Shown piece by piece: positions 1 to 36,388 of a DNA stretch of 64,000 nucleotides; the first letter of the stretch is position 1, and each line of letters opens with the position of its first letter. The DNA comes from an uncultured bacterium (GTDB lineage Bacteria > Verrucomicrobiota > Kiritimatiellia > RFP12 > UBA3636): contig CACWKU010000001.1 in NCBI GenBank assembly GCA_902761575.1, positions 22,435 through 86,434 on the forward strand. The letters are read 5' to 3'. The notes under the pieces are model-generated. The model saw only the letters and a list, made by a program, of their open reading frames with translations. It did no database searches and was not told the DNA's origin. Made by a program: the position numbers and the translations under genes.

Positions 1-2975
1 TAGGAGACGGCGTAGGACGTCGCGTTCGCCCCCTCGTCGTCGGTGCCCATCACGATCCCGGAGAGGGAGATCGTCGCCGTCGTGCCGTTCACCTCGACGG
101 CCGCGGATCCGATCGACGGATCGACGACCGTCGCCCCGCCCGCGCCGAGCTCGCGGACCTGGATGGCGTTGATGCAGGCGTTCCCGGAATACTCGATCGT
201 GAATTCTTCCGAGGCGCCGCTTGCCGTGAAGACGCCGACGAGCGAACTTCCGTATTCCCAGCCCGTTCCGCCGAACTTGACGGTCGTCGTGCCGTCCGGC
301 GCGGTGGCGGACTGCGTCGTATAAGTCTGGTTGAACGCAATGATCTGGACCAGGTACCGCTTTCCGCTCTCAAGGTTGTTCAACTGGATCTTCCGGCCTT
401 TGGGGTTCGCCCACCAGCAGTGTCCCAGCATATTCTTATAGTCGACATCGTCGATGCCGGACGGAGGAGTCGGGGTGGCGGATTGCGCCCCCGTCGTGGC
501 CTCCCATACGACGCAGTCCGCGTTGTTGATGAGGCCACTACTAGCAATGAACGCGACACCGTTGACCGTGTAGTTCCCAGCCGCGTAGGCATACTTAAGC
601 GTGCCGTCGGTTCGTATCGCGGCGCTCGTCGCGCCCAGCGCCTCGCCGGTCCAGCCCTCCTCGGCGGAACCGCCGCCACCGCCGCCCGACGTGCTGATGG
701 CGAACGAGGCGGTCTTGGACGCCGTCTTGCCCTTGTCGGTCGTGATCGTGACTTCGCAGGTGTAGGAACCGTCGGCGAGATCGGCGATCTGGAACGAGGC
801 CGAGGCGGCGGTCTGGTTCGCGAGCACCGCCACCGCGGCCCCGCCGTTCAGCGCGTAGGAGACCGCGTAGGACGTCGCGGCCGCGCCCTCGTCGTCCGTG
901 CCGAGCACGATGTCGGAGAGCGAGATCGTCGCGTTCGAGCTGACGACGCTGGCTGCCGCCGACCCGATCGACGGCGCGACGACCGGCGGCGGCGGCGTGC
1001 CGATCCGGAAGGAGACGGTCTTTTCCGCCGAGGTCTTGTTCTTGTCGGTCGTGATCGAGACCGCGCACGTATACTCGCCGTCGGCGAGGTTCGCGATGTC
1101 GAACGAAGCCGTCGCGGCGGCCTGGCCCGTGAGCGCCTGCACCGCGGCCGCGTCGCCCAGGCGATAGGAGACGGCGTAGGACGTCGCGTTCGTCCCCTCG
1201 TCGTCGGTGCCCATCACGACGCCGGCGAGCGAGATCGTCGCGGTCGAGCCGTTCGTCGAGACGGAGACGGAGCCGATCTTCGGCAGGACGACGACCGGCA
1301 CGCCGCTCTCGCCGAGGTCGCGGACCTGGATGCCGTTGATGCCGTAGTTGCCGTCGGACGTGATGGTGAACGTCTTGGTGGTCTCGGTGGCCGTGAAGGT
1401 TCCCGTCAGCGTGCCGCCGCAGGACCAGCCGTCGCCATAGACCTTGATGAAGTTCGGATCCCAGTACGACTCCTTGATCCAGACATGAGCCTTGCTGTCG
1501 CCGTTGTAGTTGCGGTAGCCGAAGATCTGGACGAGATAGCTGCGTCCGACCGTGAGGTTCTTGAGCGTCACCGCCTTGTCGCCCTGGTTCGCCCACCAGC
1601 AGCGGTCCAGGAGTTCATGGTAGGCACCGGAGACGCTGCTCGGGGCCGACGCGCCCGAGGTCTGGCTGTACGGCCAGGCGATATCGCCCGAGATGTTCGC
1701 GTTGTTGTTCCCGGCGGCCGCGAACGCAACGCCGTTGACCGTGCACGCCGCGGGCGCATACGCATACTCGAGCGTGCCGTCCGTGCGGATGGCGCTGTCG
1801 TCGGTCGGCAGCGGGCTCGCGTACCACGGCTCGGTCATCGTGAAGTCGAGCAGCGTCACGAGCTCCTTGTCGTCGGCCGTCGTGACGGTCACCTTGCAGG
1901 TATGGTCGCCGAGGGCGACGTTCGGGATCGCGAACGAAGCCCGGGTGCCCGTCTGGCCGGAAAGCGCGCGCGTCTTCGCCCCGCCGTCGAGCTCGTAGTC
2001 GATTGCGTAGGACGTGACGGCGTTCGCGTTCGCGTCCGTTCCGAGGTTGACGCCGAAGACCGTGATCGTCGCCGAGCCCGCGCCGTCCGCGTTCGGGGCG
2101 GCCTTGGCGTAGCCGACGGAAGGATCCGCCACGTGCGCCTGGCCGGCGGGAACCGAGAGATACTTGTGCATCGCGTTGGTCAGCGCAGGCTTCCAGAAAT
2201 CCGAATAGGTGAAGAATTCCGGATGGAGGCAGAGTCCCACGGCGTCGTAGCCGCCGTGGCCGCCCTCGCGGTAGCAGACCTTGTCGGGCATCGAATTCTG
2301 CTGGAGGTACTGGCTGCGGAGGTCCACCCAGAACACGCGCTTGTTGTCGACGAACTGGAGGATGTAGTCGTTGACTGCCTCGCTCATGGCCGTCACTTCG
2401 GCCGCTTCGAAGTACCTGCTGTCGAAGCTGTAGGGGAGGATCGGCATCAGGAGGATCTTCGCGTCCGGATGCTTCGTCGCCATCTCGCAGAGCATGAGCC
2501 GGATCGACTCGGCGACATCCTCGGCGCGATCGGCGTGCTCGTTGTGGTCGATGCACTTCTGGTGGCCGTTGTTGATGCCGACCATCAGCGTGAAGTACTT
2601 CGTGGTATAGCCGTCGAGCGCGCCGTTCCGGAGGCGCCACAGGAGGTTCTGGACGCGGTCGCTGCCGATGCCCATGTTGAACGCCGCGGCGTAGTTGAGG
2701 GGATCCCCGTCGAGGGCCAGGCTGGGATTGTTCCAGAAGTCGGTGATGGAGTCGCCAAACAGGACCACGTCGAAGTCCTTGCCCTGGCTGCCGCTGATGT
2801 CGGCGCTGAAGTGGTTCTTGTGGTAGTCGTCCGTGCGCTCCTTCGGCGTGCACGGCTCCGAGCTGGGGTCGGATCCCGGCACCTGGGCGCCGATCACGAT
2901 CGGATCGGCGGACGCGACAGTCCAGGCCATCGCAAGGATCGCCGCCGACAGGAAGTGGAGGAGCTTGAGTTTCAT
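1..2975 (-). CDS. Secreted multidomain SGNH/GDSL-type esterase, partial (3' end lies beyond the window start). Order: signal peptide, SGNH domain, Ig-like repeat, 'QVR' beta-sandwich module, 2 Ig-like repeats, Gly linker, second 'QVR' module, partial Ig-like repeat.
   Basis: The minus-strand frame is open from the ATG (2975-2973) to position 1. It is not in the supplied track because it has no stop in the window. Hand translation gives MKLKLLHFLSAAILAMAWTVASA (signal peptide), VVLFGDSITDFW and GINNG (SGNH blocks), ~95-aa repeats (..ATISLSGIVMGTDDEG..SYAVSY..), and modules ending INGIQVRDLGE and INAIQVRELGAGG. It is a paralog of 10964..12616 and 5249..10795. Confidence 0.85.
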   Translation of the reverse strand, partial: MKLKLLHFLSAAILAMAWTVASADPIVIGAQVPGSDPSSEPCTPKERTDDYHKNHFSADISGSQGKDFDVVLFGDSITDFWNNPSLALDGDPLNYAAAFNMGIGSDRVQNLLWRLRNGALDGYTTKYFTLMVGINNGHQKCIDHNEHADRAEDVAESIRLMLCEMATKHPDAKILLMPILPYSFDSRYFEAAEVTAMSEAVNDYILQFVDNKRVFWVDLRSQYLQQNSMPDKVCYREGGHGGYDAVGLCLHPEFFTYSDFWKPALTNAMHKYLSVPAGQAHVADPSVGYAKAAPNADGAGSATITVFGVNLGTDANANAVTSYAIDYELDGGAKTRALSGQTGTRASFAIPNVALGDHTCKVTVTTADDKELVTLLDFTMTEPWYASPLPTDDSAIRTDGTLEYAYAPAACTVNGVAFAAAGNNNANISGDIAWPYSQTSGASAPSSVSGAYHELLDRCWWANQGDKAVTLKNLTVGRSYLVQIFGYRNYNGDSKAHVWIKESYWDPNFIKVYGDGWSCGGTLTGTFTATETTKTFTITSDGNYGINGIQVRDLGESGVPVVVLPKIGSVSVSTNGSTATISLAGVVMGTDDEGTNATSYAVSYRLGDAAAVQALTGQAAATASFDIANLADGEYTCAVSITTDKNKTSAEKTVSFRIGTPPPPVVAPSIGSAAASVVSSNATISLSDIVLGTDDEGAAATSYAVSYALNGGAAVAVLANQTAASASFQIADLADGSYTCEVTITTDKGKTASKTASFAISTSGGGGGGSAEEGWTGEALGATSAAIRTDGTLKYAYAAGNYTVNGVAFIASSGLINNADCVVWEATTGAQSATPTPPSGIDDVDYKNMLGHCWWANPKGRKIQLNNLESGKRYLVQIIAFNQTYTTQSATAPDGTTTVKFGGTGWEYGSSLVGVFTASGASEEFTIEYSGNACINAIQVRELGAGGATVVDPSIGSAAVEVNGTTATISLSGIVMGTDDEGANATSYAVS

Positions 2976-3066
2976 GGTGAACCTCGTGTTTGGATGAGCT
3001 GTTGTTTTCCTTGCGTAGTGCCGGTCCGGGCTCCGAGATGGCGGAGGTGCCGTTCGACAAGGCGGA

Positions 3067-3122
3067 ATTCTAGGCGTTGCCCCGTTTCGAAGATAGGGAC
3101 ACGGAACGCGGAAACAAGTAAA
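3067..3122 (-). promoter_or_regulatory. Tripartite upstream cassette copy 1 (putative promoter of 1..2975)
   Basis: Sense strand: TTTACT (3122-3117), N18, CCCTAT (3098-3093), N20, TAGAAT (3072-3067). The ATG is 92 nt downstream. Confidence 0.55.
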
Positions 3123-3203
3123 TTTCATTCATTCGCCCGAATCCAACCCGCGGCGCGAAGCGAACGGGTTGCCTCGCGTTCGGCCCGGTCTCCGCGTTCC
3201 CTA

Positions 3204-5243
3204 TCAAACGCGTGCGAGGTCCTTCTCGCGCAGGAGGCGCCAGGCGGCGTCGCGGACGTCCGTGACGTCGTCGCGCAGCCTGCCGCAGCGGCACGGGCGG
3301 AGGCGCACGAGGTGCGTCGCGTGGCCGGGGACGGAGGCCTCGTAGACGCCCATGAAGACGCCCTCGTCCTCCTGCCGCCACACGTCGCGCACGAGCCACT
3401 TGCAGAGCAGCCCGGCCTTCTTGAGGTCGAAGGGCACCATCCGCTCGAAGCCGGACTTGTTGTAGAGGCCGGCGGCGATGGAGCCGTCGGCGAGCGGGCG
3501 CGCCCAGACCTCCCAGCCGTCGCCCTCGGCGATGCAGCCCGCGGCCTTGCCGAGCTCGTCCTGGTCGATCTCGATCACCTCGTCGTTCGTGAGGAGCGAG
3601 CGCGTGAACGGGGAGAGCTTCGTAAGATCGCAACCGATCATGAGCGGCGCCGCGAGGAGCGCCCACATCGAGACGTGCGTGTACTGCTCGTTCGGCGCGA
3701 GGCGCGACTCCTTGCCGTCGTTCCAGCAGACCGCGCCGACGCAGAGCATGTCCGGGTCGTTCCACGCGCCGGGGCCGGCGTAGAGGAAGAGGCGCTTCTG
3801 CTTCTCGATGGCGGCGGAGACCGAGGACCAGGTGTCGAAGACGTCGCCCGTCGTGCGCCAGCTCTGCCCGCCGACGCATCGCCCCCACGCGCTCACGTTC
3901 TCCATGCCGTACTGGCAGAGCGAGAGGACGATGTCCCGCTTCTGGTGGCGCAGCGCGGCGCCCATCACGAGGTAGGGGTACATCGCGCGGAGCACGTCGG
4001 AGCCGAACGCGACGTCGTCGTAGAAGCACCAGTCGTGCTTGAGGTAGTCGAAGCCCCACTCGGCGAACGTCTTCGCGTCGAGCTCCTCGTGCTGCCAGCT
4101 CCCGGCGGCGCGGCCGCAGGTGAACGGACCGGGGCTCGAGTAGATGCCGGCCTTGAGGCCCTTCGCGTGGATGTGGTCCGCGAGCGCCTTCATGTCGGGG
4201 AAGCGCCGGTTCGCGGCGATGCGGCCGTCGGCGTCGCGCAGGGGCCCGTCGAGGTCGGGGTCCTCCTTCGCGCGCTCGGGGATGTTCTGCCAGAAGTCGT
4301 CGACGTTCACGTAGGCGTAGCCGTGGTCCGCGAGGCCCGTCGCGACGAGCGCGTCCGCGGCGGTGCGGACCTTCTCGTCCGAGACGCTTCCGGCGAACGC
4401 GTTCCAGCTGCTCCAGCCCATCGCGGGCGTGAGGCAGATCGTCTCGCCGACCCGGATCGTGAACGGCTTCTCGTCGCTGCCGAGGCGGTTCGTCGCGCGG
4501 ATCGCGAGCGCGTAGTCGCCGGGCTCGTCGATGCGGCCGGAGAGGATCCGCGTGGCGGGGTCGTAGGAGAGGCCCGCGAGCTTCGGACTGTCGAGCCCGA
4601 GGCCGATCACCTCGACGCGGAGCGGCGCGGCGCCGGTCGCGGGCACGCGGAAGAGGATGGGGCGGCCGGGCCGCACGCCGTAGACGCACGGGCCGTTCAC
4701 GCGCGGCTCGGGGCGCTCCGGCGGCGTGAGGATCCCGAGCTGGCGCGACGTGCGCCGGACGTCGTTCGGGAGCACCTTGCCGTCGGCGTAGAGCAGCTTC
4801 GCCCCGCCCCAGACGGCGCCGACGCCCTTCCCCGCCCCGCCGTCCGCCGGCTCGGCGACGAGCGTGAACGTCTGGGCGCCGCTCACGTCCGCGCGCGCCT
4901 TGAGGTCGGCCGTGTCGCCCGCCGCCACGACTCCCGACCAGACTTCGCGGCCGTCGGCGAGGACCTTCAGGGCGACCGTGCCCGGCGCGCCGGCGGCGTC
5001 GATGCCGCAGGACGCCTCGAACGCGGCCGCGTCGCCGCCGACCGGGATCTCCACGGCGAACGGCACGGGCGTGCGCAGCCCGAAGAAGTGCTTCTTCGCG
5101 GGGGTCGAGAAGCGCTTCTCGATCGCCGCGCAGGCGACCTCGCAGACGCCCTCGCCGCGCACGACCCTCGTGACGTCGAACATCTCGGCGGGGACGTAGT
5201 GGACGGCGGCGGGCGCCGTTGTGTGTTTCGTGGAACGTTTCAT
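3204..5243 (-). CDS. GH27-family alpha-galactosidase with an N-terminal NPCBM-like beta-sandwich
   Basis: Track ORF 3204..6602 trimmed to the internal ATG at 5243 (MKRSTKHTT..), 5 nt after the stop of the upstream gene. The rest of the track ORF is R/G-rich nonsense in an alternate frame of 5249..10795. GH27-like motifs: TPAMGWSSWNAF, YVNVDDFWQ, FDYLKHDWCF. No obvious signal peptide. Confidence 0.9.
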   Translation of the reverse strand: MKRSTKHTTAPAAVHYVPAEMFDVTRVVRGEGVCEVACAAIEKRFSTPAKKHFFGLRTPVPFAVEIPVGGDAAAFEASCGIDAAGAPGTVALKVLADGREVWSGVVAAGDTADLKARADVSGAQTFTLVAEPADGGAGKGVGAVWGGAKLLYADGKVLPNDVRRTSRQLGILTPPERPEPRVNGPCVYGVRPGRPILFRVPATGAAPLRVEVIGLGLDSPKLAGLSYDPATRILSGRIDEPGDYALAIRATNRLGSDEKPFTIRVGETICLTPAMGWSSWNAFAGSVSDEKVRTAADALVATGLADHGYAYVNVDDFWQNIPERAKEDPDLDGPLRDADGRIAANRRFPDMKALADHIHAKGLKAGIYSSPGPFTCGRAAGSWQHEELDAKTFAEWGFDYLKHDWCFYDDVAFGSDVLRAMYPYLVMGAALRHQKRDIVLSLCQYGMENVSAWGRCVGGQSWRTTGDVFDTWSSVSAAIEKQKRLFLYAGPGAWNDPDMLCVGAVCWNDGKESRLAPNEQYTHVSMWALLAAPLMIGCDLTKLSPFTRSLLTNDEVIEIDQDELGKAAGCIAEGDGWEVWARPLADGSIAAGLYNKSGFERMVPFDLKKAGLLCKWLVRDVWRQEDEGVFMGVYEASVPGHATHLVRLRPCRCGRLRDDVTDVRDAAWRLLREKDLARV

Positions 5244-5248
5244 GGGAT

Positions 5249-8200
5249 CTAGCGCGTCAGGATCGCCCGGTAGAAATGGTGCTGGTCCGTGGCGGGCTGC
5301 CACGGGCCGGAAAGCGCGTCGGCGCCGAAGACCGTCACGGTCCCGTTGTAGGTCCCGGCGATGGCCGGAACCGTGCCCGGATCGATTCCCGCGAAGCGGA
5401 ACGCGGACTTCGCCTCGTCGAGGCCGGCCACGGCGCAGTTCAGAAGGTAGGCCGCCGAAAGCGCGTTGTCGGGGTTCCCGTCCGCGTCGAAGGACATCGC
5501 GTTCACGTCCGCGCCGCCGAACGGCACGCCGTTCGCGCGCGCCCACTTCGAGAGCCTGCGCAGCTCCGCCGTCGTGGTGCCGGCCTCCGCGAAGGCGCCG
5601 CCCGTGAGGCCGAGGTCCGCCGGCGAGGTGGCGTCCGTGATCGCCGTGTCGGGGTCCTCGGGCCAGTCCTGGAAGCCGCCGCCGCCGGCCTCGCCGAGGT
5701 CTCGGACCTGGAGGGCGGCGACGTAGCGCGCGGCGCCCGATCCGCCCATCTTGAACGTGACCACATGCGACGATGATTCCGCCGTGAACGAACCGTACAC
5801 CGTCGCGCCGGACGAGCCGTTCCCGTTCTGGATGCTGACGGAGGGCAGATCGCCGATCGTGATGTAGGCGTTTCCATACGAGTTGCGGGCCAGGATCTGC
5901 AGGAGATACGCATGGCCGGCCGTCAATCCCGAAAGCGTCAGATGGATCTCGCCCATGCCCGTATCCACGCCGAAGTCCCAGACCGTACCGAGGAGCGAGC
6001 TGCTCCCGGCGCTCACGTCCGCGCCGACGAAGGTCGGAGCAAAGGAAATGCTCGCCCCGGACAGGTTGGCGCCGGCCTGGAACGTCACGCCGCCCAGGGT
6101 CCGGTCCGTCGAGGCCCCGCGATAGGCGTAGAGAAGCGTGCCGTCCGTCCGGAGCATCGTTTCGTCCGACGCGCTCAGCGTCGCGACGGTCCAGCCCTCC
6201 ACGACGGAACCGCCGCCGCCCGACGTGTTGACGGCGAACGAGACGGACTTCGTGGCCGTCTTGCCCTTGTCGGTCGTGACCGTGACTGCGCAGGCGTAGG
6301 AGCCGTCGGCGAGGTTCTCGATGGAGAACGAGGCGGTGTCGTCGGTCTGGTTCGCGAGCGCCGCGACGGCGGTCCCGCCGTTCAGCGCGTAGGAGACGGA
6401 GTAGGACGACGCGGCCGCGCCCGCGTCGTCCGTTCCGAGCACGATGCCGGAGAGCGTGACCGTCGCGTTCGAGCCTGCAACATTGGCGGTCGCCGCGGCG
6501 ATCGACGGCGCGATGACCGGCGGCGGAGGCGTGCCGATCCGGAAGGAGACCGACTTCGCCGCCGAGGTCTTGCCCTTGTCGGTCGCGATCGTGACGACGC
6601 AAGTGTAGTCGCCGTCGGCGAGGTTCTCGATGGCGAACGACGCCGTCGCGCCGGTCTGGTTCTGCAGCGCCGTGACGGCGGTCCCGCCGTTCAGCGCGTA
6701 GGAGACGGAATAGGAAGTGGCGTCAGTCCCGGCATCGTCCGTCCCCATCACGATGCCGGAGAGAAAAAGCGACGCGGTGCTCCCGTCCGGAGTCGCGGTC
6801 ACGCTGCCGATCGACGGCTCGACGACCGTCGCCCCGCCGCCGCCGCCACCCCCGCCGCCGCCGTCGAGCTCGCGGACCTGGACGGCGTTGAACGGCATCT
6901 TGCCGCTACCGCCCTGATAGGTGATCGTCACGTCCTTCGTCGCGCCGACGGCCGTGAAGACGCCCGTGACGAGCGCGCCGTACTTCCCGCTCGCCTCGTT
7001 GTCGCCGTGGATGTGCACGGGGTCGCACCCGTTCGCGGAGACGGTCGTCGTGTTGTTCCAGTAGTTGTGCGCCAGGAACTGGACGAGGTAGATCTTCCCG
7101 CCTTCGAGATTCGAGAGCGTCAGCGTGACCGTGTGCGTGCCTGATCCGTCGCTGTCCCAGTACCAGCCGTTGCCGAGGGAGAGGCCGAGGTTGCCGCCGA
7201 CGCTTTCGTTCATGAAGTCGCCGGTGAAGCCGTCGATGTTGGGTGTGAAGGAGATCTTCGGAGGATTCTCCGAGGACTGGAGGTTCACGGACCGCTCGAA
7301 CGGGATTCCGTTGATGGTCCCGCCGTTGCAGACATAGCCGTAGACGAACGTGCCCTCCGTGCTGAATGCGGTGCCGCCCGCGTCCATGTATCCGGAGGTC
7401 CAGACATCGGAGACGGCGCTCGTGTTGACGTAGAAGACGACGGACTTCGTCTTCGCTCGCCCCTTGTCCGTCGTCATCGTGACCTCGCACGTGTGGTTGC
7501 CGTCCGCGAGGCCCTCGAGCGTGAACGAGCAGTCTTCCGACGTCTGGTCGGAGAGCGCCGTCACGGCCGCCGCGCCGTCGAGCTTGTAGGCGACGGAATA
7601 CTTCGTCGCGGGAACGGAGTTGGCGTCCGTGCCGAGGACGACGCCCGTGAGCGAGATCGTCGCGTTCGAACCGCTCGGCGCCGCGGCGAGCTCCGCGATG
7701 CGGGGATACTTCGGCCGGTTGTTCGTCGCGCGGTTCTGCGCGAACATCCAGACGAATCGGTGGTTCGGCGCGCCCGCCGTGACGTCGTCCTCCGTGGCGT
7801 AGCACGTCGTCCAGGCGTCGTGGCTGTTGTTCTCGAGCTTCTCGAAGATCACGTCCGATCCGAGCGCCCGGAGCGCCGTGACGATGCCCTCGGTCTGCTC
7901 GACGGGAATGGTCGGGTCTCCGCGGTTGTGCACGGCCAGGACCGGGACGTGCGCGATGTCGGCCGCGCAGGCGGGATCGCCGCCGCCGCAGCACGGCATC
8001 GCCGCGGCGAAGAAGTCGGGCCGGCGGCAGATCGCGTCCCAGGTCCCGTGCCCGCCCATCGAGAGGCCGGTGACGTAGATGCGGTCGGCGTCGACGTCCG
8101 CCATCGCGGCGTAGGCGTCGAGAAGGTCGAACACCGCCTGGAGCGCCGCGGACGGCTTGTCCTGGAACGTGCAGGTGGTCGAGTTCATGGAGAACTCCGC

Positions 8201-10795
8201 CCACTTGACGTCGTTCGGGCACTGGGGGACGAGAAGCTTGTAGCCGCTTGGGCCGCCCGCGCCGTCGAGGTAGCGCTGAATGTTCGACATCTCGTTGATC
8301 GTGAACGAATTGTCGACGCCGCACTGGCCGTATCCGTGAAGGAACACGACGACGGGAACCTTGCCGCCGTTCGGATCGGCCTTCGCCGCGACGCGGTAGG
8401 GGAGCTGAAGCTTGTTGGACGCGATGAAGGTCTTCTTGACGAATTCGCCGGTCAGGTCGTCGCCGCCGCCACCACCGCCGCCGCCGCCACCGCCGAGCTC
8501 GCGGAGCTGAATGGCCTTGACGAGGCATTTGCTGCCGGAGGTGGCGAACGTGACGGTCACGGTCTCCTGCGCGCCCGTCGCCTCGAACACGCGCGAAATG
8601 ACGGCGCCGCACTTGTAGTCGTTCTGCTTGGTGGCCTCGAACGGAACGAGATCGCCGGCGGAGAGCGTCGTCGAGGAATTGTTCCAGTGGTTGGCGGCGA
8701 GAATCTGGACCAGGTACTTCTTCCCGGCCGTGAGCCCCTGGAGGGTGAAGGCAAGGTCCAGCGAGGAGTCGCTCTTCTCCCACACCCAGCCGCCGTTGAA
8801 CACCGGGTTGTTCTCCGTCCAGCCCGCGCCGGCGTACGACGAGGGCGAGACCGTCGCCTGGTCCGAGCCCGGGAAGCCCGCGGAGAACGAGACGCCGTTG
8901 ACAGTGTGCCCGGTGAAGCCGCGCGCGAAGACCTGCGTGCCGTCGCTGCGGAACGCCGAGCCCGTCGCGTCCATCGGCGCGACCTTCCAGCCGACGGCGT
9001 CGGCCTGGGAATCGATCTGGAACTTGACGCGCTTCACGGCGGACATCACGACGCCGTCCGACGAAACCCAGACCGCGCAGGTGTGCCAGCCGTCGGCGAG
9101 GTCCGCGAGCTCGAACGAGGCCGAGGAGCCCGTCTCCGCCGCGGGAAGCGCCGTCTCGGCGCCCGCGTCGAGCTTGTAGGAGACCGCGAAGGACGCAGCG
9201 GCCGCGCCGCTCGCGTCCGTGCCCTTCGTCACGTTCGAAAGCGAGATCGTCGCCGACGTGCCGCTGACCTGCGCGGCGGCGGAGCCGATCGTCGGAAGCA
9301 CGACGGGCGAGGCGCCGGCCGTCGCCATCGCGCTGGCGATCGCGGGCGCGAGGATCTCCTCGTAGGCCTTCGTGGTCAGGTGCAGGAACTGGTCGGGATA
9401 GTCGCCGTTGCCCTGGAGGTACATCTCGCCGCGGTACGTCCCGTCGGCGTTCAGGAACTGGCTGCGGACGTCGACGAGGATCACGCGCTCTCCGTCCGCG
9501 AACGTCCGGATGATCTCGTTCGCCGCCTCGTTGTTGGCGTAGTGCGCGGCGCCCTTCGCGCCGTTCTGCGCGTTCGTGTAGCCGTAGGGGATGATCGGCA
9601 TCAGGAGGACCTTCGACTCGGGATGCTTCGCGAGGATGAGGTCGAGCACGGCGCGCACGCCCGCGGCGATGTCCGCGGGATCCTCGCTCGGATTCTTCCC
9701 GATCGTGTTGTTCGTGCCGATCAGCAGGTTGAAGAACTTCGTCGTGTAGCCGTCGATGCAGCCGCTCTCGAGGCGCCACAGCAGGTTCTCCACGAAGTCG
9801 CCGGTCCGGCCGAGGTTCAGGACGTTGGCGGCGAGTCCGTTCATGGACGAGGCGCTGTTCCCCTCCATCCACTTCTGAGTGAGGGAGTCGCCGAGGAGGA
9901 CGAGATCGAAGCTCCGGCCGTTTTCGCCGATGAGCTTCAGGTCGTCCTCGAACTTCCGCCAGAAGGCGTCCTGCAGATCGGCGTTGACCGCCGTCGGGAA
10001 CGTCGCGATGCGGTCGATCTCGGGACGCGCCGTCGCCACGAGGTCGGCGGGCATCGCGGAGCCGCCCGCCGCGGCGGCGACGTAGGGCGCGACCGCCTGG
10101 GCCCAGACCTCGTAGCCGGCCGCGTTCAGCGTGACGCGGTCGGCATTGAAGAGCGAGGTCTTCAGCGTGTGGTGGTCGTTCTCGAGGAAGAGGTCCGACA
10201 TGTCCACCCAGGCGCATCCCTTCTTCTGCGCGTACGCGCGAACGTCGATGTTCAGGCGGTCGTTGCGCGGACGCACGGGATCGGACTCGTCGAGCCCGCG
10301 CGGAAGCACCGCCTGCACGACGACCTTGGACGCGCCAACGCTTGCGACGAGGTCGTCGATGATTTCGCGCACGCCCAGGTACGTCTTCCCCTCCGGCTCC
10401 TCCTTCTCGGTGTAGATCGCGGCGTTGTTGCCGCCGACCATCAGGAAGACGACCTTGGGGCTGCCGAGCTCGCCGTTCCGGATGCGCCAGAGGACGTTCT
10501 CCGTGCAGTCGCCGGCGAAGCCGAGGTTGAACATTGTCCTGTCGCCGGTGAAGTAGGTCGCGAGCGCGCCCGCGCCCGTCGTCTCCCAGTCCTGCGTCAG
10601 CTCGTCGCCGAGGAAGACGATGTCCTTCCTGATGGAACTGTCGGCCACCGCCGCGACCTTCTCGGCGTGGCGCGCCGTCCACCAGGCGTCGAGCCGCGAG
10701 GCGGGGGTGTTCGCGCGGATGGACACCGCGGGTGCGTTCACAGCGGCCATCGCGAGGATCGCCGCGGACAGGAACGTGAAGGAGTGGGGTTTCAT
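5249..10795 (-). CDS. Giant secreted multi-esterase (1848 aa): 2 SGNH domains, an alpha/beta (CE1/PHB-depolymerase-like) esterase, 4 Ig-like repeats, 3 'QVR' modules, poly-Gly linkers and a conserved C-terminal tail
   Basis: Track ORF 5249..10888 trimmed to the ATG at 10795 (MKPHSFTFLSAAILAMAAVNAPA signal peptide). Motifs: IVFLGDELTQDW and LVLLGDSLTQKW/GTNN (SGNH); VVVFLHGYGQCG and GLSMGGHGTW (Ser-hydrolase elbow). Gly runs of 9-11 residues. Modules end KAIQLRELG, NAVQVRELD and ALQVRDLGE. The tail ends HHFYRAILTR. Confidence 0.9.
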   Translation of the reverse strand: MKPHSFTFLSAAILAMAAVNAPAVSIRANTPASRLDAWWTARHAEKVAAVADSSIRKDIVFLGDELTQDWETTGAGALATYFTGDRTMFNLGFAGDCTENVLWRIRNGELGSPKVVFLMVGGNNAAIYTEKEEPEGKTYLGVREIIDDLVASVGASKVVVQAVLPRGLDESDPVRPRNDRLNIDVRAYAQKKGCAWVDMSDLFLENDHHTLKTSLFNADRVTLNAAGYEVWAQAVAPYVAAAAGGSAMPADLVATARPEIDRIATFPTAVNADLQDAFWRKFEDDLKLIGENGRSFDLVLLGDSLTQKWMEGNSASSMNGLAANVLNLGRTGDFVENLLWRLESGCIDGYTTKFFNLLIGTNNTIGKNPSEDPADIAAGVRAVLDLILAKHPESKVLLMPIIPYGYTNAQNGAKGAAHYANNEAANEIIRTFADGERVILVDVRSQFLNADGTYRGEMYLQGNGDYPDQFLHLTTKAYEEILAPAIASAMATAGASPVVLPTIGSAAAQVSGTSATISLSNVTKGTDASGAAAASFAVSYKLDAGAETALPAAETGSSASFELADLADGWHTCAVWVSSDGVVMSAVKRVKFQIDSQADAVGWKVAPMDATGSAFRSDGTQVFARGFTGHTVNGVSFSAGFPGSDQATVSPSSYAGAGWTENNPVFNGGWVWEKSDSSLDLAFTLQGLTAGKKYLVQILAANHWNNSSTTLSAGDLVPFEATKQNDYKCGAVISRVFEATGAQETVTVTFATSGSKCLVKAIQLRELGGGGGGGGGGGDDLTGEFVKKTFIASNKLQLPYRVAAKADPNGGKVPVVVFLHGYGQCGVDNSFTINEMSNIQRYLDGAGGPSGYKLLVPQCPNDVKWAEFSMNSTTCTFQDKPSAALQAVFDLLDAYAAMADVDADRIYVTGLSMGGHGTWDAICRRPDFFAAAMPCCGGGDPACAADIAHVPVLAVHNRGDPTIPVEQTEGIVTALRALGSDVIFEKLENNSHDAWTTCYATEDDVTAGAPNHRFVWMFAQNRATNNRPKYPRIAELAAAPSGSNATISLTGVVLGTDANSVPATKYSVAYKLDGAAAVTALSDQTSEDCSFTLEGLADGNHTCEVTMTTDKGRAKTKSVVFYVNTSAVSDVWTSGYMDAGGTAFSTEGTFVYGYVCNGGTINGIPFERSVNLQSSENPPKISFTPNIDGFTGDFMNESVGGNLGLSLGNGWYWDSDGSGTHTVTLTLSNLEGGKIYLVQFLAHNYWNNTTTVSANGCDPVHIHGDNEASGKYGALVTGVFTAVGATKDVTITYQGGSGKMPFNAVQVRELDGGGGGGGGGGATVVEPSIGSVTATPDGSTASLFLSGIVMGTDDAGTDATSYSVSYALNGGTAVTALQNQTGATASFAIENLADGDYTCVVTIATDKGKTSAAKSVSFRIGTPPPPVIAPSIAAATANVAGSNATVTLSGIVLGTDDAGAAASSYSVSYALNGGTAVAALANQTDDTASFSIENLADGSYACAVTVTTDKGKTATKSVSFAVNTSGGGGSVVEGWTVATLSASDETMLRTDGTLLYAYRGASTDRTLGGVTFQAGANLSGASISFAPTFVGADVSAGSSSLLGTVWDFGVDTGMGEIHLTLSGLTAGHAYLLQILARNSYGNAYITIGDLPSVSIQNGNGSSGATVYGSFTAESSSHVVTFKMGGSGAARYVAALQVRDLGEAGGGGFQDWPEDPDTAITDATSPADLGLTGGAFAEAGTTTAELRRLSKWARANGVPFGGADVNAMSFDADGNPDNALSAAYLLNCAVAGLDEAKSAFRFAGIDPGTVPAIAGTYNGTVTVFGADALSGPWQPATDQHHFYRAILTR

Positions 10796-10963: not shown

Positions 10964-12616
10964 CTAGCGCGTCAGGTCGCGGACCTGGATGGCGTTGAGG
11001 GCGTAGTTGTTGTCGGCGCAGACGGTGATCGTCTTCGTGGGCGCGGTCGCCGTGAAGGTTCCCGTGAGCACGCCGCCGCGGGCCCAGCCGTCGCCGCAGA
11101 CCTTGATGTAGTTCGTGTCCCGGAACGACTCCTTGATCCAGACGTGCGACTTCTCGTAGCCGTTGAAGTCGCGGAAGCCGACGATCTGGACGAGGTAGCG
11201 GTGGCCGGGCACGAGGTTCCGGAGCGTCACCTCCTTCTCGCCCGCGTTCGCCCACCAGCAGTGGGCCAGCAGGTCGCGGAGCCCGCCGCCCACGACGTCC
11301 GCCGGGACCTGCGAGCCGGAGGTCGGCCCGTAGGGCCAGGCGATGTTCGCGTCGTCGATGGCGCCGTTCGCGGCGGCGAAGGGAACGGAATGGGCCGTGT
11401 AGGTGCCGCTCCCGACGGCGTACGCGCAGACGAGCGTCCCGTCCGTCCGAATCGCGCCGCCGTCGGCGGAGAGCGCCTCGCCCCGCCAGTCCTCGGTCAT
11501 CGTGAAGTCGACCGAGGTCGAGAGCTCCCTGCCGTCCGCGGTCGTGACGGTCACCTTGCAGGTGTGCGCGCCGAGCGCGACGTCCGGGATCGTGAACGAG
11601 TTGCGCGTCTTCGTCTGGTTCGAGAGGACCGGCTTCCTCGGCCCGCCGTCGAGCTCGTAGGCGACCGAGTAGGACGCGACGGGAACGGCCTTCGCGTCCG
11701 TCCCGAGGAAGATGCCGCGGACCGTGATCGTCGCGGTCCCCGGGCCGTCCGCGTTCGGCGCGGCCGACGCGTAGCCGAGCGAGGGGTCCGCCACGTGGGG
11801 CCGGCCCGCGGGGATCGCGCGGTACTTCTGCATCGCGGCCGTCAGGGCGGGCTTCCAGATGGCGGGATAGGCGGAGTCGGCCGGATGCAGGCAGTGCCCC
11901 TTCGAATCGTAGACGCCGGCCTTGTAGCAGCTCTCCTTGCAGGAGGCGTCGGGGTTGAGGAACGCGCCGCGCAGGTCCACCCAGAACACGCGACTGTTGT
12001 CGACGAACCCCAGGATGATGTCGTTGACGTCCTCGTTCACGTTGCGGACGTCGAGCGCCGCGTAGTACCGGCTCTCGAACCCGTAGGGCAGGATCGGCAT
12101 CAGGAGGATCTTCGACTCGGGGTGCTTCGCCACGATCTCGCGCAGGATGAGCCGGATCGACTCGGCGACGTCCTCCGCGCGGTCGCAGGGGTCGTCGTGG
12201 TTGTCGACGTGCTTCTGGTAGCCGTTGTTCACGCCGATCATCAGCGTGAAGTACTCCGCCTGGTAGCCGTCGAGCGCGCCGTTCCGGACGCGCCAGAGCA
12301 GGTTCTGCGCGCGGTCGCTGCCGATGCCCATGTTGATCGTCCTGCCGGCATCCCCGTCGAAGCTCAGGTTCGAGTAGACCCAGAAGTCGGTGATGGAGTC
12401 GCCGAAGAGGACGGCGTCGAACGACTTGCCCTGGCTCTGGCTGCGGTCGTCTTCGAAGTGGCGAACGCCGTACTCGTCCGTGCGACGCGCCGGCGTGCAC
12501 GGCTCCGAATCCGGGTTTGAGCCCGGCACGGGGACGTCGAGCGGTCCGCCGAACGCGGCGGTCGCGGCGACCGCGAGGATCGCCGAGGAGAGGAGCGGGA
12601 GGGCGTGGAGCTTCAT
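10964..12616 (-). CDS. Secreted SGNH/GDSL esterase with one Ig-like repeat and one 'QVR' module (550 aa)
   Basis: Track ORF. Signal peptide MKLHALPLLSSAILAVAATAAFG. Motifs AVLFGDSITDFW and GVNNG. Ends ..NYALNAIQVRDLTR. Collinear with the N-terminal 550 aa of the gene at 1..2975. Confidence 0.9.
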   Translation of the reverse strand: MKLHALPLLSSAILAVAATAAFGGPLDVPVPGSNPDSEPCTPARRTDEYGVRHFEDDRSQSQGKSFDAVLFGDSITDFWVYSNLSFDGDAGRTINMGIGSDRAQNLLWRVRNGALDGYQAEYFTLMIGVNNGYQKHVDNHDDPCDRAEDVAESIRLILREIVAKHPESKILLMPILPYGFESRYYAALDVRNVNEDVNDIILGFVDNSRVFWVDLRGAFLNPDASCKESCYKAGVYDSKGHCLHPADSAYPAIWKPALTAAMQKYRAIPAGRPHVADPSLGYASAAPNADGPGTATITVRGIFLGTDAKAVPVASYSVAYELDGGPRKPVLSNQTKTRNSFTIPDVALGAHTCKVTVTTADGRELSTSVDFTMTEDWRGEALSADGGAIRTDGTLVCAYAVGSGTYTAHSVPFAAANGAIDDANIAWPYGPTSGSQVPADVVGGGLRDLLAHCWWANAGEKEVTLRNLVPGHRYLVQIVGFRDFNGYEKSHVWIKESFRDTNYIKVCGDGWARGGVLTGTFTATAPTKTITVCADNNYALNAIQVRDLTR

Positions 12617-21764: not shown

Positions 21765-21833
21765 GGGGAGTCTCCTGGCTGGGTCGGGTTTTCTGTCGTC
21801 CGCCGCGGACGATGCCCGCGCCGGACGCCCCCG

Positions 21834-21890
21834 ATTCTACGCCCACACGCTCGCGGAAGGATAGGTACAAGATGCGCAAAATCTGGTAAA
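21834..21890 (-). promoter_or_regulatory. Tripartite upstream cassette copy 5 (putative promoter of 19695..21764)
   Basis: TTTACC (21890-21885), N18, ACCTAT (21866-21861), N21, TAGAAT (21839-21834). Confidence 0.55.
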
Positions 21891-21947
21891 TATGAGACCA
21901 GGCCACCGCCCGCGACGAAGTCGCGTGGCGGCATTCTCGGTTCGCGG

Positions 21948-23765: not shown

Positions 23766-23785
23766 GGTTCCGATTCGTCGGGAGG

Positions 23786-33990: not shown

Positions 33991-34096
33991 TTACCACGAT
34001 TGCAATATTTTTTTTCTATTGTTGAAATATCTGCCGCGCGTCCAGTTGCTTTCCGAATCAAGGGCGAATCGGACGCGAAGGGCGCGAGGGCGCGTC

Positions 34097-34121: not shown

Positions 34122-34128
34122 GGCATCC

Positions 34129-35724
34129 TCAACGAGGCGCGATCTTGACCCAGACGAAGTCGAGCTTGTCGCGGACGGCGACCGTGAGGACGCCGCCTTC
34201 GATCCGCGCTTCGCCGCGACCGCCGATGACGGTCGGCTCCAGGCCGTCCGAGGGCAGGTAGTCGGCGAGGGGCAGGGAGAACTCCTCGCGCGCGTCCAGC
34301 TCGCGGAAGAGAAGCGCCGTTCCCGCCGTTCCGTCGCGGGACGCCGACACGAAGCCCGTCCAGGAGAGGCCGTCCGGCGCGCTCCCGACGGGATGGACGT
34401 AGCCCTCGTGGATCGCGTCGCGCTCCCGCTTCCATCGGGCGATGAGGGGCTTCCACGCCTCGACCGTCTCCCGCGAGAGGTTCTGGATCTCGAACCATCC
34501 GAGCGGCGAGGAGTACATCGCGATCGCGAAGATCGCGTCGCGCGGCCAGCGCAGGGGCGCGAGCGAGTCGCCATCGGGATACAGTTCCGGCTGGCGCTCG
34601 GGGTTCAGGACCTCCATCCGCAGACGCACGGGATCGACGGCGTGCGCGAGGCCCCAGAGGTTCCGCAGCGTGCGGTGCGGCCACCAGAGGCGGCCGTCGC
34701 CCTCGCGGACGTAGCGGTTTTCCACGAAAACGGGGCCGATGCGCGGGAACGCGAAGTAGCCGGGGCGCCGCCCCGCCGTGACGTCGAGGTCGACGGTGAT
34801 GCGGCCGCCCGACCCGTCCATCAGCCGGTCCATCAGCATCCCCTGGCGCGCGAATGCGAGAGGGGTCGGCGTGTCCATCGAGTCGAACTTGAAGTAGTCG
34901 ATGCCGAAAGAGCGGTGGAGGGACAGGAGGAAGTCGGCGTCCCGCCGCCAGTTCGCCGCCTCGTCGGAGGAGTCCGGCCCGAACCACAGCCCGAACTTCA
35001 GGCCCTTCGCGCGCGCCTCCGCGATGAGCGGCGCGAGCCCGCCCGGGAACCGGACGGGGTCGACGTCCCAGAACCCCGCCTCCTCCCACCAGGAGCCCCA
35101 GCGCCCCTTTTCGCCCCTCGCGACGCGGACGGAATTGGCCGTGTAGCCCTTCTCCCAGCCGTCGTCGATCTGGATCACGTCCACGCCGAGCTCGGCCCCC
35201 GCCGCGATCTCGCCCCGCAGGAAGCGCTCGTTGACGCAGGCGTCCTGGTGCCCGTCGCCCCAGGTGTTGGAGAGGAAGAGCCCGTCGCGCCCCGCGACGT
35301 ACGGGCGGAACGACCGGTGGAAGTCCGTGGCCGCGCGGACGCGCCCCGCCCTCCCGCCGCGATAGCCGACGCGGAAGCACCGGTAGGGACTGGAAAGGAT
35401 GCGCAGCATCTGCCGCCCGGGATCCACGTGCCAGTCGGGCGAATCGTCCGCCCGCGCGTGCGGCAGCGGCGCCTGGCGGAAGAAGGCGACGCCCTCCCCG
35501 CCGAGCGAATCCTCGAGGAAGAGCGCCGGTCCGGCAACGTCGAACGGCCTCTCGCAGCGGGAAAGCAGGCGCTCCTTCTCGAAGTAGAGGTCATCGTGCC
35601 GGTCCGTGTCGTCCACCAGCTGGACCTCGACCAGCCGCGGATGCTCCCACGTGTAGCGGAACTCGCCGCCCTCCTCCGCTCCGTACGGAAGCGCACGGAC
35701 CTCGGGCACGACGGAATCGGGCAT
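34129..35724 (-). CDS. GH36-like alpha-galactosidase/melibiase-family enzyme (531 aa), no signal peptide
   Basis: Track ORF. Motifs VIQIDDGWE and IDYFKFDSMD (GH36-type K-x-D), plus GLKFGLWFGP. Its start lies 13 nt after the stop of 35738..36388. Confidence 0.85.
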   Translation of the reverse strand: MPDSVVPEVRALPYGAEEGGEFRYTWEHPRLVEVQLVDDTDRHDDLYFEKERLLSRCERPFDVAGPALFLEDSLGGEGVAFFRQAPLPHARADDSPDWHVDPGRQMLRILSSPYRCFRVGYRGGRAGRVRAATDFHRSFRPYVAGRDGLFLSNTWGDGHQDACVNERFLRGEIAAGAELGVDVIQIDDGWEKGYTANSVRVARGEKGRWGSWWEEAGFWDVDPVRFPGGLAPLIAEARAKGLKFGLWFGPDSSDEAANWRRDADFLLSLHRSFGIDYFKFDSMDTPTPLAFARQGMLMDRLMDGSGGRITVDLDVTAGRRPGYFAFPRIGPVFVENRYVREGDGRLWWPHRTLRNLWGLAHAVDPVRLRMEVLNPERQPELYPDGDSLAPLRWPRDAIFAIAMYSSPLGWFEIQNLSRETVEAWKPLIARWKRERDAIHEGYVHPVGSAPDGLSWTGFVSASRDGTAGTALLFRELDAREEFSLPLADYLPSDGLEPTVIGGRGEARIEGGVLTVAVRDKLDFVWVKIAPR

Positions 35725-35737
35725 GGAAGGAAGGCCC

Positions 35738-36388
35738 TTACTTGACGGTAATGACCGCCGGCTTCCCCGCCGGTTCGTCCGACGGAAGCTCGCGCACCTG
35801 GATGGCGTTGATCAAAGCCTGGCCGCTGTACGAGATCGTGAACTCCTCCGTCGTGGCTTCGGCGGTGAACTGGCAGATCAGCGAACCGCCGTATTCCCAT
35901 CCGGTTCCGGCGAACTTGGCAACCGTCGTTCGGTCCGGCGCGGTCGCCGACTGCGTCGTGTAGTCGTTGCGGAAGGCGACCATCTGGACCAGATACCGCT
36001 TCCCGGATTCCAGATTCTTCAACGCGATCGGCCGGTCCTTGCCGTTTGCCCACCAGCCATTCGACAGCAGATCCTTGTAATCGCCCGACTCGGTGTCGGA
36101 GGGAGGCGACGAAACGGCGTTGCCGGCTCCGCCCGAGGCTTCCCAGACGACGCAGTCCGCCGTATTGACGATTTTGTCGCCGACACCGGCGAACGAAACG
36201 CCGTTGACCGTGTAGTTTCCGCGGGCGTAGGCGTACTTGAGCGTTCCGTCCGTGCGGATCGACGTGCTGCTCGCCGTCAGTGGCGTAGCAGACCACGTGA
36301 CGTCCGTTGCCGCCCCGGCGGGGGCGGCGACGAGCGCGGCGGCGGCCGCGAGGGCGAGGGCGGCGGTTTTCCTGACGATGCGATTCAT
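35738..36388 (-). CDS. Free-standing secreted 'QVR' module protein (216 aa)
   Basis: C-terminal part of track ORF 35738..40231, trimmed to the ATG at 36388 (MNRIVRKTAALALAAAAALVAAPAGA signal peptide). The whole mature protein is one copy of the recurrent module (..SSTSIRTDGTLKYAYARGNYTVNGVSF..GKRYLVQMVAF..LINAIQVRELPS). Confidence 0.85.
   Translation of the reverse strand: MNRIVRKTAALALAAAAALVAAPAGAATDVTWSATPLTASSTSIRTDGTLKYAYARGNYTVNGVSFAGVGDKIVNTADCVVWEASGGAGNAVSSPPSDTESGDYKDLLSNGWWANGKDRPIALKNLESGKRYLVQMVAFRNDYTTQSATAPDRTTVAKFAGTGWEYGGSLICQFTAEATTEEFTISYSGQALINAIQVRELPSDEPAGKPAVITVK

Follow-up and report, generated by a model that had tools for sequence, protein, structure and literature searches.

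A probable new family of carbohydrate-binding-type jelly-roll modules in five proteins secreted by a gut Kiritimatiellae bacterium

Results and Discussion

A gut Kiritimatiellae bacterium encodes eight copies of a ~175-aa module, named here QVR, distributed over five secreted proteins. QVR is an extracellular domain, joined by Ig-like spacers and poly-Gly runs to carbohydrate esterases and beta-helix enzymes. Given its CBM-like fold and its enzyme partners, it probably founds an undescribed family of non-catalytic, CBM-type beta-jelly-roll modules, novelty being taken relative to Pfam 2025, NCBIfam 20 and PDB sequences only. The case for carbohydrate binding is circumstantial, as it is built on the predicted fold and the partners. 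In agreement with the CAZy criterion that such modules lie within or appended to carbohydrate-active enzymes, QVR shares polypeptides in the window (the whole 64 kb of DNA analysed) with GDSL/SGNH and alpha/beta-hydrolase esterases and with a beta-helix, and elsewhere in the family with GH29, GH16, GHL6, sulfatase and pectate-lyase-like domains. This shuffling among different enzymes bears out the CBM-like behaviour which a first-pass annotation of the same DNA had read from the sequence.

Module Copies and Host Proteins

A phmmer search of the window, translated in six frames, with the mature free-standing protein as query detected eight domains (independent E-values 2e-7 to 6.5e-126, the latter a self-match), and an HMM built from these copies recovered the same eight and zero extra across the entire 64 kb (hmmsearch). 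The count is precisely the eight copies in five proteins of the first-pass annotation, whose coordinates deviate from the HMM limits by at most ~20 nt and whose signature reappears in our eight-module alignment (A1) as W.., IRTDGTL.YAY, TVNGV.F, GWW, L.L.NL..G..YLVQ, G.L.G.FTA and NAIQVR[DE]L, together with 16 invariant columns. Pairwise identity among the modules is 22–61%, so the copies are old and diverged and not a recent repeat. Every gene concerned is located on the minus strand, and all five translations start with a typical Sec signal peptide, consistent with the secretion proposed earlier.

The first gene (1..2975) is cut by the window start and encodes a signal peptide, a GDSL/SGNH esterase (2283-2762; Pfam Lipase_GDSL_2, 1.5e-12), Ig, QVR, Ig, Ig, poly-Gly, QVR and Ig, with Ig-like repeats at 3-128, 690-983, 996-1292 and 1833-2132. 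Its first module (1302..1841; hmmsearch 6e-74) shares 58% identity with the module of gene 10964-12616, while the second (135..665; 7e-72) is the nearest relative of the free-standing copy (61% identity). The second gene (5249..10795) encodes an 1848-aa protein arranged as signal peptide, two GDSL domains (10106-10615 and 9353-9901; Lipase_GDSL_2, 6e-32), Ig, QVR (8483..9004; 2e-57), poly-Gly, an alpha/beta-hydrolase esterase (7808-8380; Pfam DLH, 5e-7; NCBIfam PHB-depolymerase-type esterase, 6e-12), Ig, QVR (6854..7417), poly-Gly, Ig, Ig, QVR (5684..6208; 2e-51) and a 141-aa C-terminal domain (5252-5674), which is also present in gene 12804-14384. The 550-aa product of 10964..12616 consists of a signal peptide, a GDSL esterase (11867-12409; Lipase_GDSL_2, 3e-15), one Ig repeat (11492-11794) and QVR (10970..11503; 2e-68), directly followed by the stop. 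In the 789-aa protein of 17155..19524 the order is signal peptide, QVR (18889..19449; 2e-67), Ig (18595-18888) and a right-handed beta-helix (~18570 to 17860 and beyond; Pfam Beta_helix, 6e-5; NCBIfam beta_helix_1/NosD), with the tail PTILVLR. Finally, in the 216-aa product of the free-standing gene (35738..36388) the signal peptide (aa 1-26) is followed by a single QVR module (35777..36310, by phmmer and HMM limits), 15 aa of linker and a tail, AVITVK, at the C-terminus. The Ig-like repeats, previously estimated at ~95 aa, amount to 10 copies of 97–101 aa with weak Big_13, PKD and Ig_J matches, and the poly-Gly linkers are runs of 4–11 Gly immediately after modules.

Fold and Relation to Known Families

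The beta-sandwich expected by the first-pass annotation is what structure prediction returned: the AF2 models of the free-standing protein (pLDDT 89.9, ~15 strands) and of the independently modelled module 6854..7417 (pLDDT 91.6) are both all-beta, with pTM values of 0.86–0.89. Together with its occurrence as a separate gene and its shuffling between architectures, the models characterize QVR as a contiguous domain predicted to fold autonomously. Foldseek matched the module model to CBM6/CBM35-type or toxin receptor-binding domains, and the nearest structures are distant (identity ≤18%, TM-score relative to query ≤0.48). A beta-sandwich domain of Bacteroides GH2 beta-glucuronidases (PDB 6d50/5uj6 of B. 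uniformis GUS-2, 6ed1 of B. dorei, 8dhl of T. forsythia) is a structural neighbor, but with an identity of only 8–10% and no sequence-profile relationship. The aligned part of the 837-residue GH2 chain would be the accessory C-terminal domain, as other GH2 structures are missing from the match lists; we take this domain to be malectin/CBM57-like. Malectin and malectin-like proteins (CBM57; Xenopus malectin 2k46, FERONIA ectodomain 6a5e) are also neighbors at 7–12% identity, and the nearest systems further include the type-B/C jelly-roll CBMs, namely CBM22, CBM4/9, CBM61, CBM6/35, CBM77 and PL9 pectate-lyase CBMs (8x8h, 8wc1). Compared to these CBMs, QVR is 30–50 residues larger, has its own invariant set (Y106, Q109, Q171, R173) and gives no profile match. 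SGNH esterases with a fused beta-sandwich are known from B. subtilis YxiM (2o14), CE2 esterases (2waa) and C. jejuni Ape1 with CBM35 (8gld/8gkd). In those the sandwich packs directly on the catalytic domain, whereas QVR is set apart by ~100-aa Ig-like repeats and poly-Gly and also occurs as a separate gene.

Sequence databases gave a similar picture. As the first-pass annotation had stated, the module belongs to no named Pfam family: no Pfam or NCBIfam model covers it in the five window proteins, and a profile search of all PDB sequences produced chance fn3 fragments only. Forty small family members (the eight window modules and 32 others) were scanned against Pfam at E ≤ 1. None of them matched Malectin (PF11721) or Malectin_like (PF12819), and four gave weak matches to GH101_dom-5. 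CBM_4_9/CBM22 (PF02018) was hit by three members, none of them a window copy, with a best whole-protein E-value of 0.0012, which falls short of membership. These hints, along with the fact that the structural neighbors are precisely such families, speak for QVR being a diverged branch of a CBM family already in CAZy (e.g., CBM57/malectin-like, CBM22 or CBM61), in which case the function would be as proposed and the family not new; we regard this as unlikely. A 25-residue local match to fn3 (PF00041), 'L.NL.PG..Y.V.V', was found in 21/40 members. It spans profile positions ~47-75 only, with no full-length alignment of ~85 residues above the gathering score; the aligned part amounts to only about one quarter of the fn3 model. 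QVR is also twice as large as an fn3 domain and is modelled as a jelly roll, whereas fn3 is a 7-strand Ig-like sandwich. A strand-loop-strand 'tyrosine corner' (Y106, L100, G103) common to both probably accounts for the match. A literature search returned nothing usable on a Kiritimatiellae CBM, the accessory domain of B. uniformis GUS-2 or a Kiritimatiellae sorting signal.

Conserved Residues and Candidate Site

Across 372 modules, G22, A27, F40, L100, G103, Y106, Q109, G141, F148, A150, Q171 and R173 are near-invariant. That the module is itself catalytic, for example as a jelly-roll glycoside hydrolase or lyase, could be proposed from the jelly-roll folds of GH16, GH11 and several polysaccharide lyase families, and from the invariant Tyr, Gln and Arg, which are found in some lyase active sites. 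However, not a single Asp or Glu reaches ≥60% conservation among the 372 modules, which speaks against an active site of the glycosidase or lyase type; we hold catalysis to be most improbable. The N-terminal Trp6 is conserved at 80%, and apart from it no family-wide conserved surface aromatic typical of CBM sites was found.

Mean-field DCA on the same 372 modules was read from neighboring ladders only, because the couplings of invariant columns are themselves uninformative. The ladders 105-112|142-149, 105-112|166-175 and 23-29|169-175 place Gln109, Gln171 and Arg173 on two adjacent antiparallel strands, all on the sheet face that points away from the hydrophobic core. We propose these three residues (mature numbering; precursor 135, 197 and 199) as the candidate functional site, while the conserved Gln/Gln/Arg may instead be buried and linked in a structural network of hydrogen bonds. 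By covariation, residues 11-18, Tyr78 and Trp138 seem to cover part of this face. An invariant Arg in modules lying beside pectate-lyase-like, sulfatase and acetyl-esterase partners would fit an anionic or heavily decorated glycan ligand.

As a CBM-type module, QVR would bind polysaccharide and keep the attached catalytic domains on their substrate, and several copies per protein would confer avidity. In this locus the free-standing copy could then capture glycans without enzymatic activity of its own, a role comparable to that of the surface glycan-binding proteins (SGBPs) of Bacteroidota. SGBPs (e.g., BtSGBP-B, 7kwb) are lipoproteins of Sus-like systems, whereas the free-standing QVR protein has a cleavable-type signal peptide that lacks a lipobox Cys, its C-terminal tail is unrelated, and SusC/D are absent from its neighborhood.

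Wider Family and C-terminal Tail

The family comprises 2,203 cluster representatives at E ≤ 1e-3, with one to ~20 module copies per protein; one protein, of 5227 aa, was too long to be aligned. Nearly all genome loci recovered belong to gut Kiritimatiellae. The genome scan was queried with the four closest modules and catches only copies with exact IRTDGTL / NAIQVR motifs, hence the family is under-sampled. Among 66 representatives scanned for partner domains, GDSL esterase was found in 12, Beta_helix in eight, alpha-L-fucosidase (GH29) in four, GH16, GHL6 and Pect-lyase_RHGA_epim in two each and sulfatase in one, in addition to Ig/fn3 spacers. Free-standing homologues (n = 81, most of 200–225 aa, range 118–350) keep their size and architecture, lie in CAZyme-rich loci and, wherever named, are 'hypothetical'. 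Many family members are non-enzymatic surface proteins in which tandem modules accompany PATR, CotH or LTD domains, as would be anticipated if QVR were a cell-surface adhesion or structural beta-sandwich for a protein or glycan of the host, a neighboring cell or its own envelope, and had no part in enzyme targeting. Yet the module is repeatedly fused to diverse carbohydrate-active catalytic domains, and the Ig-like repeats and poly-Gly linkers already serve as spacers; we therefore consider an adhesive or structural role rather unlikely.

Rumen and hindgut communities commonly contain Kiritimatiellae, of which almost none have been cultured from there. With an unannotated module in 2,203 representatives and at up to ~20 copies per protein, much of their secreted proteome is left unexplained. 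Definition of the CBM family and of its ligand would provide annotation for thousands of 'hypothetical' proteins, a pointer to the glycan attacked by the esterase, beta-helix and alpha-galactosidase loci, and a new binding reagent; for CAZyme annotation the assignment as such is incremental and brings no conceptual surprise. Cultured marine relatives are described in PMC6388578 as specialists in the breakdown of complex sulfated polysaccharides.

Many family members carry a short C-terminal tail of hydrophobic residues with Lys or Arg at its end: at least four hydrophobic residues out of six followed by a terminal Lys/Arg are present in 55/147 representatives and 46/81 free-standing homologues. 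With 5–7 residues the hydrophobic stretch could not span a membrane as a helix, and in the five window proteins no NCBIfam *-CTERM or sortase-signal model for known sorting signals (PEP-CTERM, LPXTG, T9SS CTD) matched at E ≤ 1. The tail may be an unrecognised sorting signal. Its frequency could also indicate that the tail, carried by many proteins in these genomes, is the ligand and QVR a protein-protein assembly unit (cohesin-like or by donor-strand complementation) of multi-enzyme surface complexes; proteins with 10–20 modules resemble scaffoldins and cohesins are likewise jelly rolls, but the module did not qualify as a cohesin-type jelly roll with a dockerin partner, and we find such an assembly role very unlikely. 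A more speculative proposal, to which we assign a low probability, is that QVR and the tail ([G/P], 5–6 hydrophobic residues, terminal K/R) constitute a Kiritimatiellae-specific system for surface glycan capture and enzyme display, where the tail would act as sorting/anchoring signal or donated strand, the modules as glycan-binding heads and the free-standing protein as the minimal unit. If true, the PVC superphylum (Planctomycetes-Verrucomicrobia-Chlamydiae) would possess a functional equivalent of Sus-like surface glycan-binding proteins or cellulosomal scaffolds.

Neighboring Genes

Alpha-galactosidases had been counted among the module's partners. Two such genes are indeed present, both on the minus strand and with no visible signal peptide; they are neighbors of module genes and not fusions to the module. 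The GH36-like gene (34129..35724; Pfam Melibiase, 4e-7; PDB GH36 alpha-galactosidases, 4e-4) lies 13 nt downstream of the free-standing gene. The other (3204..5243) encodes a GH27 alpha-galactosidase with an N-terminal NPCBM (Melibiase_2, 6.5e-51; Melibiase_C, 8e-15; NPCBM, 1e-12), starts 5 nt downstream of gene 5249-10795 and was missing from the earlier list of partners. The first-pass annotation called the pairing of the free-standing and GH36-like genes odd. We rejected a functional oddity, as the pairing is not conserved in the relatives L001, L004 and L006: in L001 and L006 a GDSL-esterase gene lies downstream, and in L004 the free-standing protein is 82% identical while the GH36-like gene is down to an 89-aa remnant. 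Co-transcription of a secreted binding protein with a cytoplasmic oligosaccharide-trimming glycosidase is also an ordinary operon layout. The conserved neighbor is the upstream gene (36598..39927, minus strand), which encodes a 1109-aa secreted protein with no assigned function and zero matches in Pfam or PDB, and is syntenic in all three relatives at 78–99% identity. Three ORFs without Pfam match (3070-4689, 16179-17291 and 21595-23958) were discarded as genes, since codon-position GC places the real genes in other frames, namely those of ~21948-23765 (no assignment), ~16226-17160 (IU_nuc_hydro-like) and the GH27 gene at 3204-5243.

Module Copies and Their Proteins

The QVR module is an autonomous, secreted jelly-roll of about 175 aa that recurs, through shuffling, in carbohydrate esterases, beta-helix enzymes and glycosidases and likewise in non-catalytic surface proteins, and a function of the carbohydrate-binding module (CBM) type is rather probable for it. 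A phmmer search of the six-frame translation of the window with the mature free-standing protein led to eight domains (independent E-values from 2e-7 to 6.5e-126, the latter being the self-match). An HMM built from these copies re-found the same eight (2e-51 to 6e-74) and no ninth in the 64 kb, which upholds the count of eight copies in five secreted proteins made in the first-pass annotation; the motif string proposed there is the consensus of our alignment of the eight, which has 16 invariant columns. The QVR-bearing genes are all on the minus strand, the only one on which the coordinates first assigned to them translate cleanly, and the G+C content of the window is 65-73%. As read from the translations, the N-termini of all five proteins have the parts of a signal peptide: an n-region that is basic, then a hydrophobic core, then a site of the Ala-X-Ala type.

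Two copies (135-665 and 1302-1841) belong to the gene ending at 2975, which is cut by the window start and has the order signal peptide, GDSL esterase, Ig, QVR, Ig, Ig, poly-Gly, QVR, Ig and onward. Three copies (8483-9004, 6854-7417 and 5684-6208) are carried by gene 5249-10795, which reads signal peptide, GDSL, GDSL, Ig, QVR, poly-Gly and an alpha/beta-hydrolase esterase of the DLH / PHB-depolymerase type, followed by Ig, QVR, poly-Gly, Ig, Ig, QVR and a 141-aa C-terminal domain. Gene 10964-12616 (signal peptide, GDSL, Ig, QVR) has its copy at 10970-11503, gene 17155-19524 (signal peptide, QVR, Ig, right-handed beta-helix) at 18889-19449, and the free-standing gene 35738-36388 at 35777-36310. 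The Ig-like spacers and poly-Gly linkers described earlier were recovered as ten repeats of 97-101 aa flanking the modules, with weak Big_13, PKD and Ig_J matches, and as runs of 4-11 glycines directly after several modules. The esterase and beta-helix fusions were likewise borne out, while the alpha-galactosidases, also listed as partners, are encoded by neighbouring genes and not fused. Pairwise identity among the copies is 22-61%; the free-standing copy is nearest to the C-terminal copy of the gene ending at 2975 (61%), and the first copy of that gene to the one in gene 10964-12616 (58%). The copies thus stem from old duplications and domain shuffling and not from a recent repeat.

Family Searches and Predicted Fold

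The five window proteins gave no match to the module in Pfam-A (2025) or NCBIfam 20 at E ≤ 1, in line with the earlier remark that it was not recognisable as a named Pfam family. When 40 small family members were scanned singly at the same threshold, 21 showed a local fn3 match of 25 residues ("L.NL.PG..Y.V.V"), and stray weak matches were seen to CBM_4_9 (3/40) and to GH101 domain 5 (4/40). A 33-sequence profile run against every PDB chain sequence retrieved only the same fn3 fragment (E ≥ 0.09), and the database name on QVR proteins or their clusters is "hypothetical protein" in every case.

The beta-sandwich predicted for the module was recovered in all-beta AlphaFold2 models of two divergent copies. 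The free-standing module, modelled from a 33-sequence alignment, is folded into some 15 strands with a single short helix (pLDDT 89.9, pTM 0.86), and an independent model of the copy at 6854-7417, which is 29% identical, has the same strand order (pLDDT 91.6, pTM 0.89). The structural-neighbour comparison, with paired scores, was led by the Bacteroides GH2 beta-glucuronidase 6d50 (11.4, 10.8) and its Bacteroides dorei counterpart 6ed1 (9.8, 9.9), followed by the FERONIA malectin-like ectodomain (9.2, 9.4), B. subtilis YxiM (8.9, 9.9), the receptor-binding domain of Iota-toxin Ib / CDTb (8.7-8.9, 8.4), the PL9 pectate-lyase CBM (8.4, 8.1), CBM22 (7.5, 9.0), CBM61 (7.5, 8.6) and malectin (7.4, 7.5). 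Dozens of CBM4, 6, 35, 27, 29 and 77 structures ranked beneath them. Identities across the comparison were 4-18%. The predicted fold is thus the jelly roll used by type-B/C CBMs and by malectin. Foldseek and the structural-neighbour comparison of the models found no close relative among solved structures, Foldseek yielding no E-value better than 1.3e-4 and no query-based TM-score above 0.48. A divergent member of an existing CBM family, to which the CBM-like neighbours and the few CBM_4_9 matches could point, is improbable. The module is probably a new family relative to Pfam, NCBIfam and PDB only, and probably one of a very familiar module kind, not surprising in principle; it merits an entry in Pfam or CAZy.

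Conserved Residues and a Candidate Site

Over 372 module instances, G22, A27, F40, L100, G103, Y106, Q109, G141, F148, A150, Q171 and R173 (numbered on the mature free-standing protein; Q109, Q171 and R173 are 135, 197 and 199 of the precursor) are near-invariant, at 91-99% each. No Asp, Glu or His reaches 60% conservation in this set, which argues against a hydrolase or lyase active site; conserved catalytic-type residues are lacking, and a catalytic role for the module is extremely improbable. L100, G103 and Y106 are part of the strand-loop-strand motif that resembles fn3 and probably form a structural element of the tyrosine-corner type. Mean-field DCA on the 372 sequences revealed antiparallel ladders pairing 105-112 with 142-149, 105-112 with 166-175 and 23-29 with 169-175. 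Their parity assigns Y106, V108, I170, V172, Y26, Y28 and F148 to the core face, and groups Q109, Q171, R173 and A27 on the reverse of this sheet; part of that reverse face, near V111, appears to be covered by residues 11-18, Y78 and W138. With this placement and partial cover, the Gln-Gln-Arg cluster would either line the bottom of a cleft or pocket, the arrangement in CBM22/CBM4-type modules, or make up a polar network buried in the protein.

As a CBM-type module, QVR would bind glycan and tether the attached catalytic domains to it, multiple copies would add avidity, and the free-standing copy would act as a glycan-capture protein. The invariant Arg, taken with partners of the pectate-lyase-like, sulfatase and acetyl-esterase kinds, makes a polysaccharide that is anionic or heavily decorated a reasonable first, if weak, guess for the ligand.

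Distribution and Partner Domains

When 1.84 billion cluster representatives were searched exhaustively with a profile, 2,203 proteins passed E ≤ 1e-3, and the number fell to 656 at 1e-10 and to 129 at 1e-30. A motif-seeded scan of one genome per species gave 34 loci, almost all in Kiritimatiellae MAGs of rumen, goat, human and termite guts, along with a few bins labelled Verrucomicrobia or Lentisphaerae and one Bacteroidales; the window itself belongs to a 92-kb contig of a Kiritimatiellae MAG, and its close relatives come from the Stewart rumen assemblies. Among 66 representatives scanned, the partners were GDSL esterase (12), Beta_helix (8), alpha-L-fucosidase (4), GH16, GHL6 and rhamnogalacturonase/pectate-lyase-like domains (2 each) and sulfatase (1), as well as CHB_HEX_C_1, CotH, LTD, Laminin_G_3, PATR and many Ig/fn3 spacers. 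Catalytic domains are absent from a sizeable subset, whose members carry 3-4 tandem QVR modules and then a repeat region of about 250 aa. Such proteins would suit an adhesin or structural domain, a reading that we consider unlikely, though conceivable, next to so many enzyme fusions. Copies per protein range from 1 to about 20, the upper end being the 5,227-aa cluster representative P0082 with 19-20 modules; a cohesin-like assembly module, which high copy numbers might recall, is very improbable. A second giant, P0085 (4429 aa), combines 10 QVR modules with LTD, CotH, CHB_HEX_C_1 and Cthe_2159, and the layout of both is scaffold-like.

The surrounding locus in the window also codes for a phytase-like esterase, a BD-FAE esterase, a 2097-aa beta-helix/FGE-sulfatase-domain protein and several large secreted proteins for which there was no match. 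The 2097-aa secreted protein (27174-33467, minus strand) is an unusual fusion of Pel9A-like / chondroitinase-B-like beta-helix segments, an FGE-sulfatase (formylglycine-generating-enzyme-like) domain, DUF5123 and CHB_HEX_C_1. ORF 50410-53115 (minus strand) matches SBP_bac_1 (extracellular solute-binding protein) and BPD_transp_1 (ABC permease), and is either a binding-protein/permease fusion or two genes joined by the ORF call.

The Free-Standing Gene and Its Neighbours

The free-standing protein has 81 homologues (33-92% identity), most of 200-225 aa (range 118-350), which shows that selection maintains the stand-alone form. In three relatives with long contigs (loci L001, L004 and L006) the gene is invariably surrounded by beta-helix, GDSL, GH2, GH20 and Melibiase-domain genes, and is preceded each time by a gene for a secreted protein of about 1,100 aa, 78-99% identical to the product of window gene 36598-39927 (minus strand). 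The latter, a 1109-aa signal-peptide protein in the same syntenic upstream position, matches neither a Pfam model nor a PDB sequence and is a candidate for a functional partner of the free-standing protein. Its conservation is stronger than that of the QVR protein itself.

Downstream, the GH36-like gene (34129-35724, minus strand; Melibiase 4e-7, GH36 structures 4e-4) starts 13 nt after the free-standing gene. The first-pass annotation had singled this out as an odd pairing, a view that does not survive comparison: the downstream gene is a GDSL-esterase in L001 and L006, and L004, the closest relative with a long contig (free-standing protein 82% identical), has kept no more than the initial 89 codons of the GH36-like gene (86.5% identical) at 6696-6977, in an ORF that lies 13 nt past the free-standing homologue and is followed by an AAA_14/DUF4143 gene. 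The GH36-like gene was truncated or replaced in that strain, and with a neighbour that varies in this way the pairing is not conserved. A GH27 alpha-galactosidase gene with an N-terminal NPCBM (3204-5243, minus strand; Melibiase_2 6.5e-51) starts 5 nt past the stop of the three-module esterase gene 5249-10795, the second instance in which a clan GH-D enzyme comes directly after a secreted QVR protein. No signal peptide is visible in the GH36-like or the GH27 translation. Secreted binders or enzymes together with cytoplasmic glycosidases that trim oligosaccharides are an ordinary layout of sugar-utilisation operons; its occurrence twice in the window, with GH27 and GH36, is a weak hint that the substrates are alpha-galactosylated.

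C-Terminal Tails and Domains

Many of the secreted proteins end in Gly/Pro, 5-6 hydrophobic residues and Lys/Arg at the very C-terminus. Within the window, such tails are AVITVK (35741-35760), TILVLR (17158-17180) and TIIIVK (19698-19720), each at the stop codon; GLFIVFR, GMQIFIR, GFIFICK and PAVITVK illustrate the pattern, with family proteins between P0099 and P0226 among the carriers. A simple rule for the tail applies to 55/147 family representatives and 46/81 free-standing homologues. The tail has too few residues to form a membrane helix and fits no sorting-signal model in NCBIfam; it may be an unrecognised Kiritimatiellae sorting or anchoring signal. If it is a new sorting signal, module and tail might conceivably define a Kiritimatiellae-specific surface glycan-capture system, which we regard as a long shot.

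The C-terminal domain of about 141 aa (5252-5674 and 12807-13290, minus strand) is common to the 1848-aa esterase protein and the phytase-like protein 12804-14384 (61% identical, E-value 2e-61). It has no Pfam match, ends in HHFYRAILTR or HRFFQAILTR, a type of ending also present in P0091 and P0173, and may be a second kind of C-terminal targeting domain. Finally, a 689-aa signal-peptide protein (19695-21764, minus strand) combines a match to PATR (autotransporter passenger-type) repeats with a hydrophobic-Lys tail of the kind just described, and its gene adjoins the QVR beta-helix gene.
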